A program made the translations under genes and the position numbers. A stretch of 64,000 nucleotides of DNA, from NCBI GenBank assembly GCA_038087875.1, contig CM075994.1, forward strand, positions 3,722,001-3,786,000, given 5' to 3'. This document shows, piece after piece, positions 44,112 through 52,568 of the stretch. The number at the start of each line of letters is the position of its first letter. Positions within the stretch are counted from its first letter, which is position 1. The notes under the pieces are model-generated. The model did not search any database, was not told where the DNA came from, and saw only the letters and a list, made by a program, of their open reading frames with translations. Source of the DNA: Malacoraja senta (lineage: Eukaryota).

Positions 44112-44887
44112 GTAAGTAGGTGATAATCTGGCGGTGAGAAAGGCACAATGCATTGTTGCTACGACAGAGCACAATCTTGAGTTTTTGCTGCCCTTTTCCT
44201 GTGCAGCTCATGCCAGCATTATCATTTGCGTGCATTCACATGCAGAAATCCGGAATTATACCGACCAAACCAGCATGATTTCGAAGTCGGCAATTTTTGT
44301 AGCCCTTTTAGTTTCCGTCAATATGACATCACGTCAATTGGTGCGGATTTGAGTTATTAACGAAATATTATCATCTTGATATCCTGATAATCCAATATGT
44401 TCAGTCATATCAGAAATTATATTATTTCTCTAACGACATGCTTAATGAAGTTATTATTGCAGGCATGACTTGTGATTGCCAGTATTATGATAACTGAGAA
44501 GTTTATGCTTTTGCGCGCCATCCAGTGGATCAAGTGAGTACAAGGGAGTTAAAATAAACAGAATGTAGAACAAAGTGTTGCACTTGCAGATAATATGAAG
44601 ATAATGTGCAGAGACGAAATAGATCGCGAGATAGGGATTTCATGCTTCTGATATTAAAGTATATTTAAGAGTGCGACAATAGTGGGAAATGAACATTTCC
44701 TGAATAGCGGCACATGCTTTCAAACTTTGCAACGGCTGCATGCTGGGAGAGAGGTGTGGTGGGGAGAGGGGGGGGGTCAGATTGCGTAATGGAATGCGTT
44801 GCGTTTTCCAGCAAGCGCTAGCTGTCTTGAGAGCAGCAGTTACTCTGCACTGGATAAGATGCCTCTGCTCGCGCATTAGTAAATTAG

Positions 44888-44914
44888 GATGCCAACGTGC
44901 AATTGTAAAACCAG
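44888..44914 (+). CDS. Possible gene B micro-exon, 27 nt, (G)CQRAIVKP
   Basis: taaattag|GATGCC...AACCAG|gtaagt; strong donor, weak acceptor. Confidence 0.3.
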
Positions 44915-45335
44915 GTAAGTCATTGGACACTTGCCTAATCTCATTACATTACTTGTCTGTAGTTTCAACGTGATTAGATGAGGACAAATGGTTGGTGAAA
45001 TTTATCCTAATGTCCCATCCCTATATATCACCGTACTAATTATGAAAGTGCTTATCAACAGTTGATGTCCGGCAATTTTTCAGCATAGAACAGCAAAATG
45101 AAAACATTTTCCGAATATTTCATAATGTAATGTCTTCACTTCAGAAAGCAAAAAAAATATCTGTTGCCGATTATATTTGCAGTCTGTTTGGGTCTTATCA
45201 GCAAAATCCCTCAGGACGAGATAAAATCAGATTATTCTCAGCGTGTTTGTGAATTGTATATTATATAAATAGAGGTATATGATATTTATAGGATATGTAA
45301 ATAATGTGGTTATATATGTAATAATTGCACTACAG

Positions 45336-45353
45336 GCAGTGACAAAGAAACAG
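45336..45353 (+). pseudogene. Dead copy of the duplicated micro-exon (18 nt, donor GT>GG)
   Basis: cactacag|GCAGTGACAAAGAAACAG|ggaaac, homologous to 50918-50938 including flanks. Confidence 0.7.
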
Positions 45354-45508
45354 GGAAACTATCAACAATATCAGTACATGTATCCTAGATAGTTGCTTGA
45401 ATCATTTGTTTTACGTCGATAAATAATTTATGGTACATAGGTCTCGAGATGTTATACAGTTGAAGAGTGAATACGTATCTTTACTGTGTACGGTTTTATT
45501 AGAATATA

Positions 45509-46330
45509 TCTGTCTATCTATCTATCTATCTATCTATCTATCTATCTATCTATCTATCTATCTATCTATCTATCTATCTATCTATCTATCTATCTATCTA
45601 TCTATCTATCTATCTATCTATCTATCTATCTATCTATCTATCTATCTATCTATCTATCTATCTATCTATCTATCTATCTATCTATCTATCTATCTATCTA
45701 TCGATCGATCGATCTATCTATCTATCTATCTATCTATCTATCTATCTATCTATCTATCTATCTATCTATCTATCTATCTATCTATCTATTCTATTCTATT
45801 CTATTCTATTTTCTATCTCTCCATAACTAAAACTCTGATCTTGTTATCTTCTGGTTTGTGCGGTCTTTCTATTTGCGCCAAAACGTTTCGCGACAGCGCT
45901 ACGATTTTTCGCCAGTTCATTTATCGTTCTCCAATGCTGTGATTGCACCAAGTTCCGTTCCGATCGGTTGAATGTTGTAAAATCTAGCGGGCTTTAAACA
46001 TCTAAAAATCCGCGCGTGCGCAGATCGATCTCTTCTCCTGTAGTTCCGCGCCACGCGGATTAGTCTCTTCCCCTGTCACTCACGGGAACGGTCCGCCCCT
46101 TCCAGCGCCATCGCGTCTTTACTGGAGCTGAGCATGGCAGGCGGAGGTTTCCAACCGGATCCAATTTTTGGAGGGACACAAAGCAGCCCAGCCCCAAGCA
46201 GCCCAGCCCCAAGCAGCTCGGCCGCAAGCAGTCCAGCTCCAAGCAGCCCAGCGTCAGAGTCCCAGCGTCGGCGACCCAGACCAGCGTCGGAGACCCAGCA
46301 CAGCGCAGCGTCGGAGACCCAGCCCAGCCC
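45509..46330 (+). mobile_element. (TCTA)n array followed by the 5' part of a Helitron-like element
   Basis: ataactaaaactctgatcttg motif; internal agcagcccagcccca repeats; no 3' hairpin seen. Confidence 0.6.
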
Positions 46331-46789
46331 ATTTTATTTTAATATGACTTACAAAATAAGCTTAAGAATGTAACAGCTGCATGATCCATTAAACCACCTG
46401 CAGTCTTTCCTGACATCGGCAGGCGGGAACAAAATAAATTTGTGTAGACGACAAAGAACATAAGGATGTTTTAGACTACGCTGTTCAAACATGTTCAGTA
46501 ATAACATAAATTATATTAATTCTCTAAGGTAACGTGATGCTTAATGAAGTTATTATTCCCGGCTAAACGTGATTGCCAGTATGACGGGAAGTATGTAATT
46601 TTGCATGCGATTCAGTAGATCAAGGGTGCTAAAAGAAACAATGCAGAACAGAGTGTTGCACCTACAGAAAATGTCTAAAGATATAAGTGGAAGGGCTGAA
46701 ACGAAATAGGTCGTGAGATCGGGAATTCATGCTTCATATATGAAAGTCTATTTAAGAGTAGAGTTAAAGCCGGAAAGAACCGGTTCTTG

Positions 46790-47325
46790 AATCTGGCTTC
46801 GGAGACAGACCGTTCGCTATCAGAGAGGGGGATCCCACCAACGGTATCCCACCACTGGCCACATCTTCCCTTTCGGCTTTACGCAGAGACAGCTCCCTCC
46901 GTAATTCGCTGGTCAATTCGTACCTTCCCAACCAAACACACCCTCCCCTGGTACTTTCCCTTGCAACCGCAGGAAATGCTACACTTGTCGCTTTACCTCC
47001 CCTCTCGATTCCATCCAAGGACCCAAGCAGTCTTTCCAGGAGAGGCGGAGATTCACCTGCACCTCCTCCAACCCCATCTATTGCATCCGCTGTTCAAGGT
47101 GCCAACTGCTCTACATCGGTGAGACCATGCGCAGGCTTGGCGATCGCTTCGCCCAACAAATCCGCTCAGTTCGCATTAACCAACCTGATCTCCCGGTAGC
47201 TCAGCACTTCAACTCCCCCTCCCATTCCGAATCCGACCTTTCGGTCCTGAGCCTCCTCCGTACCAGAGTGAGTCCAACCGCAAATTGGAGAAGCACCTCA
47301 TATTTCGCTTGGGTAGTTTACACCC
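46790..47325 (+). mobile_element. Penelope-like element GIY-YIG endonuclease fragment
   Basis: FTCTSSNPIYCIRCSRCQLLYIGETMRRLGDRF..PVAQHFN; a more decayed piece lies at ~37490-37680. Confidence 0.88.
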
Positions 47326-50323: not shown

Positions 50324-50344
50324 GCAAAGATGACAAGGAAGCAG
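50324..50344 (+). CDS. Gene B duplicated micro-exon, 21 nt, (G)KDDKEA
   Basis: ttaattacattacag|GCAAAG...AAGCAG|gtacat. Confidence 0.6.
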
Positions 50345-50917
50345 GTACATTATAATCAATATCCGTGTTTATATCATATATATTTGCATGACTCGCTAGC
50401 TCTACGGTAAGGAATAATTTATCGAACATAGGTCTGGAGATAATATATTGTTGAAGATTGGCCACACAGCGTTATTGTGCATTGTTTTATCGGGATTCTG
50501 TACAAAATGTGAAACCAATGTGTAAAACGTATATATATTGTTACTTTAAGATGACTTTCATGTCCCACGGCAATCTCGATGAATTTTCCCGATGCTATTT
50601 ACTGTCTATTTGGCTCGATAATAGACTGCAAAACATTAGACGGAAAACATTAATCGATCATTTTTATTAGTAAAGTTTAATGTTTTATGTGTCATTCATA
50701 ACTGTCACTGTATGTCATGTTGTCACTTGCGAGCGGAGCACCAAGGCAAATACTTGGCCAATAAACGTATTCATTCATTCCAGCAGAATCCCTCAGGGCA
50801 ATAATGTATCAGATTAATTTCAGCGTGTTTGTGACTAGTATATTATACAAACGGATGTATCTGATACTTATTGGATATAGGAACAATGTGTCTACATGTG
50901 TTTTATTTACATTACAG

Positions 50918-50938
50918 GCAAGGGTGACAAAGAAACAG
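50918..50938 (+). CDS. Gene B duplicated micro-exon, 21 nt, (G)KGDKET
   Basis: ttttatttacattacag|GCAAGG...AAACAG|gtaaac. Confidence 0.7.
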
Positions 50939-51343
50939 GTAAACTATCAGAAATACCAGTTTTTACATCTTACTTTGTTACTTGCATTACTAGCTATACC
51001 GGTGGAACGTTGTTCATGGAACATAGGTCTAGATATATAATATTGTTGAAGAGTGAAAACAGAGCTTTGCTGTGTATTATTTTATTAGAATTCTGTATGT
51101 ATTTGAAGCCACCGTGTAAAACGTGTTTCTTTTGTAACGTTAATAAAACTTTCATTTCCCAAAGCAAAATCGATACATTTTGCCGATTATATTTACAATC
51201 TATTTGGGTATCATCCGCAAAATCCCTCAGGACGAGATAATGTCAGATTATTCTCAGTGTGTTCTCAGTTGTATATTGTAGAAAATACGCTATTTATTGG
51301 ATATGTAATCAATGTGGCTACGTGTGTTCTAATTACATTACAG

Positions 51344-51364
51344 ACACAGGTGACAAAGGAACAG
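51344..51364 (+). CDS. Gene B duplicated micro-exon, 21 nt, (D)TGDKGT
   Basis: ctaattacattacag|ACACAG...GAACAG|gtaatc. Confidence 0.65.
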
Positions 51365-52241
51365 GTAATCTATCAGCAATAACGGTGTTTATATCCTTGC
51401 TCGAATCACTAGATTTACACGTGGAGAAATAATTTATGGTACGCATAATTAACAACAAGGTCTGGCGATTAAATACTGTTGAAGAGTGAACACAGCTTTT
51501 ATTTGTTCACTTTAATACGTTAATATGAGTTGCAAATTGAGATTAATTCTGTTTCAGCTAGTGGAGCCATTGAACTACTTGCATACTTTCCTGATAACTG
51601 CAGGCGGGAACGAAACAAATTTGCGCCTGACGACACATTTATGAAGAATGTTTTAAACTCCACTGGTCAAACATGTTCAGTGATACCAGAACATATTATT
51701 TCTATAAAGTAGTGTCATACTAACGATGTTATCATTGCAGGCTAGACTTTTGATTGCCAGTATTATGATAAATGATACGTGTGTGATTTTGCGTGCCATA
51801 CAGTCAAAGCAAGTGCATCAAGTTAAAACAAGAGAGCAAAAAGGAACTGAATGCAGAACAGTGTGTCGCAACTACAGATAAGTGCAGAGAAAAATGTGGA
51901 AGGGCTGAAATGAAACAAATCATTAGATCAAGGAATCATGCTTTCGATATGAACGGATATTACAGAATATGACAACAACGGGCTAGAAACAATGCTTTCA
52001 ATCTTTGGCTCTGATCAGCAAAACTTCTCAGGACGAGATAATATCATAATATTCTCAGCCTATATGTATGTTTTTATATTGTACAAACGGATGTACGTAA
52101 TGGTTATTGGATAAATGAAAAAAAAAAATTGATGCTTCCTATGGTCAAACTTAATCTGACCTGTACATTACACAAATTGCGGTATTAATATTTTTTGGAT
52201 ATGTGAACAATGCATCTACATGTGTTATAATTATATTACAA

Positions 52242-52262
52242 GCAAAGGTGACAAAGAAACAA
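52242..52262 (+). pseudogene. Dead copy of the duplicated micro-exon (acceptor CAG>CAA)
   Basis: tattacaa|GCAAAGGTGACAAAGAAACAA|gtaaat. Confidence 0.65.
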
Positions 52263-52568
52263 GTAAATTAACAACCATGCCATGTTTATATCGTACATTG
52301 TTCTTTGAATTACTAACTTTACATGTCGAGCAATAATTTATGGGACAAAGTTCTGGATATACAATATTGTTGAGGAGTCACGACACAGCTTTCTCGTTGC
52401 TTAATTCAGACGGATATCGTATATATCCCTGCTTATTTTTAAATGACATTTGCCACATTTTGCCTTTTCACACGCAACATCTGCTAACATTTAGAAGTAG
52501 GGAATTTGAGAGTCAGGCTGGAAAGAATTTAATGGACATTGCCCCCCAAAAATCCATGTCTTGGTTAG

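Follow-up and report, generated by a model that had tools for sequence, protein, structure and literature searches.

An old tandem array of five 21-nt exon-like units in a predicted micro-exon gene of Malacoraja senta

Five diverged copies of a 21-nucleotide (nt) exon-like segment, with homologous intron sequence around them, lie inside a predicted micro-exon gene (gene B) in a 64,000-nt stretch of Malacoraja senta DNA (assembly GCA_038087875.1, contig CM075994.1, positions 3,722,001 to 3,786,000). We refer to this whole stretch as the window and give all coordinates within it. In the best explanation, one frame-neutral 21-nt exon-like unit was duplicated in tandem long ago inside that predicted gene, together with its flanking intron; this likely happened in a single burst, and the array has likely stayed frozen since. 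We give this explanation a probability of roughly 0.6. Its historical part, the duplication itself, we hold with high confidence. Judging from the sequence, at least one of copies 2 to 4 is probably still spliced today, a claim that we rate somewhat above even odds.

The array and its age

Self-BLAST and a profile search found five homologous copies where the first-pass annotation, made from the letters alone, had placed them. The units match one another with E values of 1e-22 to 1e-85, and a five-unit profile run over the 64 kilobases (kb) with nhmmer returned just the five units and two pieces of them. The splice-site states described for each copy were also confirmed. Copies 2 to 4 (50324, 50918, and 51344) retain AG/GT and frame, copy 1 (45336) has a GG donor and a 3-nt deletion, and copy 5 (52242) has a CAA acceptor (Table 1). 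The candidate exons of copies 2 to 4 contain no stop, and 0 of their 21 residues are hydrophobic (L/I/V/M/F/W/Y). The description of the repeated unit itself needs amending. Its motif does recur, but the upstream part is exact in just three copies (copies 1 and 4 and the copy 5 region), and copy 2 has GTACAT instead of the proposed GTAA donor.

The units come in two sizes, a short form of about 430 nt and a long form that consists of the short form plus a second intronic block. This block, also pointed out in advance, recurs three times, at 44328, 46339, and 51520, and stands in front of copies 1, 2, and 5. Copies 2, 3, and 4 lie head to tail, spaced by 439 nt (with a 155-nt insert removed) and 426 nt. 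Unit 5 carries a small internal duplication and lacks its 5' part, perhaps through a deletion at a TTTG microhomology. A further upstream block, the sixth, is partial, contains no exon, and spans 51995 to 52120. The array was interrupted later by a microsatellite, an insert of about 3.2 kb, and a short genome-wide repeat. We take the open reading frames (ORFs) of the 3.2-kb insert to be retroelement-like. There were 0 Rfam matches over 43500 to 54800.

The divergence among copies points to an old event. The five units align at 70 to 76%. Pairwise identity between short units is 0.70 to 0.75, with Jukes-Cantor (JC) distances of 0.30 to 0.39, and each copy is changed from the majority of the five at 13 to 17% of its sites. 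The longest perfect match between units is 10 to 24 nt in all 10 pairs. Identity peaks at 0.85 over 100 alignment columns, so no such segment has been homogenised recently. The copy tree is star-like, with bootstrap values of at most 60 to 79, and does not fix an order of duplications. Three relatives are diverged from M. senta by 5.8 to 7.2%. Set against divergences of this size, the duplications are about five times older than the splits from these relatives.

We compared read contigs from four of 14 listed runs, one from a second sample of the species and three from the relatives (B, C, and E), over 49990 to 52760. The second sample has 0 differences over 49990 to 50497 and 50814 to 52760, the CAA acceptor included; its contigs leave 50497 to 50814 unbridged. 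The alignment of a 4050-nt contig of this sample, which carries copy 1, to copy 3 shows 26 mismatches and 3 gaps. This equals the window's own count for copy 1 against copy 3, the T>G change at the donor included. On the third second-block copy, the same contig has 14 mismatches and the same 37 intervening letters, as in the window. The broken splice sites are thus present in the second sample, directly for copy 5 and indirectly, by mismatch count, for copy 1. At 80% likeness, the bins of the unit have single-copy depth wherever they are covered in all four runs. Their depth in the second sample is 22 to 44, and the excess is accounted for by the copy 1 contig. At this likeness, the unit is single-locus and local, and it is not dispersed.

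In relative C, copies 3 and 4 and the third second-block copy are colinear in one 1381-nt contig (50759 to 52113), and copy 2 is in another contig. Copy 2 is covered in all three relatives. Copies 3 and 4 are uncovered in relatives B and E, as is the copy 5 interval (52113 to 52538) in all three; these stretches are holes, not demonstrated deletions. The single joint in relative E, from 50780 to 52113, was rejected because just 23 A-rich letters next to a high-copy repeat support it. At 52538 the alignment of every relative's contigs ends with unaligned overhangs, a possible, unproven structural difference. The short repeat in unit 3 (about 50626 to 50780) has a summed depth of about 1e6 in all four runs (bin 50641 to 50733). 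Going by contig ends, it sits at the same place in the relatives.

Splice-site survival and the host gene

Intact splice sites in three of the five copies say nothing about use, because neutral decay would leave a similar number. At 15 to 20% change per site, AG and GT together are expected in 2.05 to 2.61 of 5 copies, and the chance of at least three intact copies is 0.33 to 0.54. A comparison of exon with intron conservation, which had been suggested as a check, came out positive for the five copies together. Exon bodies differ from the majority at 8/102 positions versus 164/1051 in the introns (Fisher p = 0.04; binomial p = 0.016), and of 202 intron windows, 1 reaches the same level of conservation. 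Unexpectedly, the signal sits in the broken copies, and the numbers are small: copies 1 and 5 have changes at 1/39 exon bases versus 66/428 bases of their introns (p = 0.03, with the copies split post hoc). On the simplest reading, the unit was a real exon when it was copied, and copies 1 and 5 would have remained constrained until a late hit to a splice site. The residues of copies 2 and 4, each with 3/21 changes and so at the intron rate, would on the same reading be free of constraint.

These observations suggest the following history. A first duplication would have produced identical neighbours, and unequal crossover or slippage would have amplified the copies while they were still alike. 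Point changes and insertions would then have ended recombination. The exon is phase 1-1 and its length a multiple of three, so an additional copy would keep the frame and lengthen the linker that joins two helical segments by seven polar residues; gains and losses would thus be nearly neutral. Copies 1 and 5 were likely constrained longest, and each would have lost one splice site late. Copies 2 to 4 may supply up to 21 polar residues as a flexible linker, as predicted cassettes that are included or skipped under little residue constraint. We liken this to isoforms in related proteins: those annotated for the Narcine "zinc-binding protein A33-like" differ by 6- and 9-residue blocks.

The host gene is a model. 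It has ten exons of 16 to 36 nt between 32402 and 53496 and is open for 82 codons; all internal exons (9/9) are phase 1-1 and multiples of three, a phase that the exon-like ancestor of the array would share. A splice scan of 32.0 to 54.6 kb gave 12 candidates on the plus strand (8 of them multiples of three) versus 2 on the minus strand, and the scan of 54600 to 64000 found no further phase 1-1 micro-exon candidates. Compared by BLAST with a set of 154 proteins, the model reaches a best E value of 9e-06 in that small set. Gene B is likely a paralogue or partial duplicate of the neighbouring gene A, a member of a chondrichthyan coiled-coil/SPRY family. There is no SPRY exon for gene B in the window, and the gene hits the TGA at 54516 or runs past 64000. 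The segment that holds this TGA (54502 to 54529) is one base longer than the usual 27-nt exons of the family and has good AG/GT boundaries. The exon directly upstream of the array (43937) was considered as a further unit copy and rejected by the five-unit profile search. The first-pass annotation had taken the array as independent support for gene B. This stands only in part: three intact copies of five match the neutral expectation, and support comes from exon-body conservation and from the protein similarity of the neighbouring exons.

Several points weigh against the preferred explanation. The intact copies alone, where the exon-intron check failed, are not significantly conserved (7/63 versus 98/623; p = 0.46), and non-synonymous changes make up 5 of their 7. 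Among the differences listed for the relatives (40 of 192), those in copy 2 are all non-synonymous; two are common to three species and one more occurs in one, and 2/21 is within chance (p = 0.4). The N-terminal half of the gene B model matches 3 of 7 family proteins in their stalks (z = 4.3 to 5.5; 0 to 1 of 500 shuffles), in scores that still contain coiled-coil bias because shuffles lose heptad periodicity, and the other 4 have no significant match (z = -0.8 to 1.5). No orthologue of gene B was found in index and phmmer searches of protein databases (near-length SPRY query, 0/7 candidates; longer, 1/106; family profile, 2/7999). The segment at 54502 to 54529 may be either the true end, so that gene B would encode 87 amino acids and lack SPRY, or an exon that was frameshifted in a truncated family member. 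The one further sample that bears on copy number has the same sequence, and it comes from the same study and maybe the same animal. Finally, non-allelic homologous recombination (NAHR) on matches of less than 50 base pairs (bp) between close alpha-globin repeats is described in the relevant section of PMC2583991, so rare events are possible.

Alternative explanations

The most serious alternative, and one that we consider rather unlikely, is that all five copies are effectively pseudo-exons, or that gene B is truncated or decaying, with AG/GT kept in three copies by chance. The neutral expectation fits it, as do the intron-like rate of change in copies 2 and 4, the in-frame TGA at 54516, and the lack of an orthologous protein in our searches. 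The donors are also weak (scores of 2.7 to 4.1, on a rough, approximate splice-site matrix). However, the exon bodies overall are better conserved than the introns; the upstream model exons follow one another in an open frame and are colinear with family proteins; and the exon candidates show a strand bias.

A more far-reaching reading is doubtful. The locus would belong to an undescribed vertebrate micro-exon family of cartilaginous fishes, with a coiled-coil stalk and SPRY, that tunes stalk and linker length exon by exon, and copies 1 and 5, once the working ones, would have lost their splice sites late while copies 2 to 4, drifting or evolving fast, took over. If true, a likely immune-type protein would vary in length through its splicing.

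The earlier proposal that unequal crossover still resizes the array, leaving exon number polymorphic, found no support, and we consider it very improbable. The head-to-tail spacing of copies 2 to 4 (426 to 439 nt) would suit it, as would the coverage holes over copy 5 in three relatives and over copies 3 and 4 in two. The number of 21-nt exons does vary in chicken BG genes, according to the sections of PMC5938342 on these exons. Against it, the copies are 70 to 75% identical, no perfect match between them exceeds 24 nt, the top window stands at 0.85, and insertions lie inside the array. The same array is present in the second sample, and copies 3 and 4 are colinear in a relative about 6% diverged. 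According to the pertinent part of a review on rearrangements in humans (PMC2583991), recombination becomes 20-fold rarer once perfect homology shrinks from 232 to 134 bp, meiotic tracts measure 300 to 500 bp, and efficient NAHR needs long near-identical tracts. Such tracts, expected for recurrent NAHR, are absent between the copies (10 to 24 nt versus 134 to 232 and 300 to 500 bp). Therefore, ongoing unequal crossover is unlikely but not impossible.

At still longer odds, copies 1 and 5 could be alive, spliced via the GG donor or a shifted acceptor, and for that reason have the best-kept bodies. The post hoc exon-intron contrast in these two copies agrees with this idea, as does the frame-keeping deletion of copy 1. 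Copy 5 has an AAG acceptor at +6 (52248) that would yield a 15-nt in-frame exon. However, the CAG-to-CAA change also creates an AG at +1 (52243), which would give a 20-nt, out-of-frame exon, and both cryptic acceptors are weak (scores of -2.3 and -2.5, the first frameshifting). Downstream of copy 1, no in-frame alternative GT of useful score was found (-2.8 to -10.4), and GG donors are very rare.

Although real mobile-element-like DNA occurs in the region, it is barely credible that the unit is an exonised dispersed repeat or mobile element, an outcome that the first-pass annotation said would overturn its view, as its bins have single-copy depth in all four runs at 80% likeness versus about 1e6 for the true repeat at 50641 to 50780, and the 64 kb hold no other copy, which contradicts this idea at 80% identity or more.

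Most likely, then, the array represents ordinary exon duplication that has become frozen. On present evidence it reveals no new mechanism and no segregating length polymorphism, and chicken BG genes and tandem exon duplication in general already exemplify the process. AG/GT intact in three of five old copies is no proof of function. The array also points to a poorly annotated SPRY gene family of sharks and rays.

Gene A, its family, and other features of the window

Gene A's SPRY ORF is the sole SPRY found in the window. It is 65% identical to Narcine bancroftii XP_069775385.1 and 49% identical to a Scyliorhinus protein. Family accessions are XP_069775385.1, XP_038672308.1 (Scyliorhinus), and XP_042192744.1 (Callorhinchus). 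The members carry automatic names ("zinc-binding protein A33-like," "TRIM39-like," "TRIM58," and "butyrophilin 3A1-like"), and SPRY is the sole domain shown for them. As far as sequence can tell, internal duplication recurs in the stalks of this family. In the ESM Atlas, the Narcine protein retrieved generic SPRY clusters only. No literature on the family or its function was found, in a search with partial coverage that left most subscription journals outside. The Callorhinchus stalk (XP_042192744.1) has about 14 polar eight-residue repeats and three longer block repeats, and the Scyliorhinus stalk (XP_038672308.1) has nine-residue repeat units.

Elsewhere in the window, ORF fragments at 15700 to 15960 presumably represent a processed copy of a CCCH zinc-finger gene (ZFP36-like) that has decayed. 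On the minus strand, at about 18400 to 21500, lie broken pieces of ORFs that resemble integrase, RNase H, and reverse transcriptase; we assume that they come from a long terminal repeat (LTR) element. An element at about 620 to 5220 contains a 60-nt tandem array at 836 to 1139; from its broken reverse transcriptase/recombinase-like ORFs, we take it to be DIRS-like.

Table 1. Coordinates of the array, of the gene B model, and of gene A in the window
Feature	Position	Strand	Remarks
Copy 1	45336..45353	+	18 nt, with 3 nt deleted in frame; acceptor AG, donor position GG; predicted dead
Copy 2	50324..50344	+	21-nt phase 1-1 candidate exon; AG/GT kept; donor GTACAT, weak
Copy 3	50918..50938	+	21-nt phase 1-1 candidate exon; AG/GT kept; top splice scores among the five
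Copy 4	51344..51364	+	21-nt phase 1-1 candidate exon; AG/GT kept; three non-synonymous changes versus majority
Copy 5	52242..52262	+	CAA for CAG acceptor; last base G>A; predicted dead
Short unit 1 (copy 1 with intron on either side)	45098..45505	+	nhmmer
Short unit 2	50086..50501	+	nhmmer
Short unit 3	50522..51096	+	Split by genome-wide repeat of about 155 nt, about 50626-50780
Short unit 4	51118..51519	+	nhmmer
Unit 5	51995..52419	+	Exon-less partial upstream block 51995-52120; copy 5 lies in 52157-52419
Second intronic block, copy 1 (long unit 1)	44328..44705	+	Self-BLAST/profile
Second intronic block, copy 2 (long unit 2)	46339..46792	+	About 3.2 kb of later DNA between block and exon
Second intronic block, copy 3 (long unit 3)	51520..51997	+	Profile
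(TATC)n microsatellite within array	45507..45818	.	
Inserted DNA within long unit 2	46793..50007	.	Parts match repeats elsewhere in the window
Gene B, candidate first coding exon (ATG)	32402..32417	+	Inferred
Gene B, 24-nt phase 1-1 exon (model)	36814..36837	+	AAG acceptor; under scan threshold, picked by eye
Gene B, 27-nt exon (model)	41888..41914	+	Coiled-coil segment like SPRY-gene family
Gene B, 36-nt exon (model)	42434..42469	+	AAG acceptor; under scan threshold, picked by eye
Gene B, 18-nt exon directly upstream of array (model)	43937..43954	+	Splice scan
Gene B, 27-nt exon downstream of array (model)	52668..52694	+	Splice scan
Gene B, 36-nt exon (model)	53461..53496	+	Splice scan
28-nt AG/GT-bounded segment	54502..54529	+	In-frame TGA 54516-54518; AATAAA at 54761
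Gene A, 30-nt phase 1-1 micro-exon	9819..9848	+	Precedes SPRY exon
Gene A, terminal SPRY (B30.2-type) exon	11604..12124	+	Pfam SPRY E 9.6e-12

Comparison with known systems

One comparison is the coiled-coil/SPRY family itself. Gene A is a member, and the predicted helical segments of gene B resemble the family stalk; unlike the family, gene B has no SPRY exon in the window and no close database protein. In architecture only, the gene B model also resembles the micro-exon genes (MEGs) of Schistosoma. The coding sequence of these genes consists mainly of symmetric exons of at most 36 nt, and micro-exon duplication is described for MEG-3.1 (PMC8293314, in its sections on MEG structure). All 10 exons of the gene B model, which is not a transcript, are within this limit. 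In contrast, MEGs as presented there have a signal peptide and are restricted to schistosomes, whereas the predicted N terminus of gene B is polar (by inspection) and the locus is from a vertebrate.

The nearest precedent is found in chicken BG genes. They encode cytoplasmic tails from 13 to 36 exons of 21 nt, and the number varies between genes and haplotypes (PMC4046983 and PMC5938342, in the parts on the tails). These exons are 21, sometimes 18 or 24, nt long, with a split first codon and hydrophobic fourth and last codons (PMC5938342). The likeness lies in the repeated 21-nt phase 1-1 exons and in the B30.2-related (butyrophilin) family context. However, BG exons, as described there, are true heptads, whereas the array copies fail the heptad test, with their 0/21 hydrophobic residues. 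BG genes have immunoglobulin V (Ig-V) and transmembrane exons; none is in the gene B model, whose 5' end is unfixed and whose window was not scanned for Ig. BG variation, in the same accounts, is current, and the gene B array is old. Gene B is not a BG gene.

In animals, duplication of exons in tandem is described as a common process (PMC9741552, in a passage citing Kondrashov and Koonin 2001 and Letunic et al. 2002). The array shares with it adjacent homologous exons and homologous flanking intron, at one locus and local. The well-studied cases are mutually exclusive domain substitutions. By comparison, the gene B array is of 21 nt, frame-neutral, and five-fold, and its intron homology can still be read. 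It is a readable fossil of exon gain and loss in genes of tiny frame-neutral exons.

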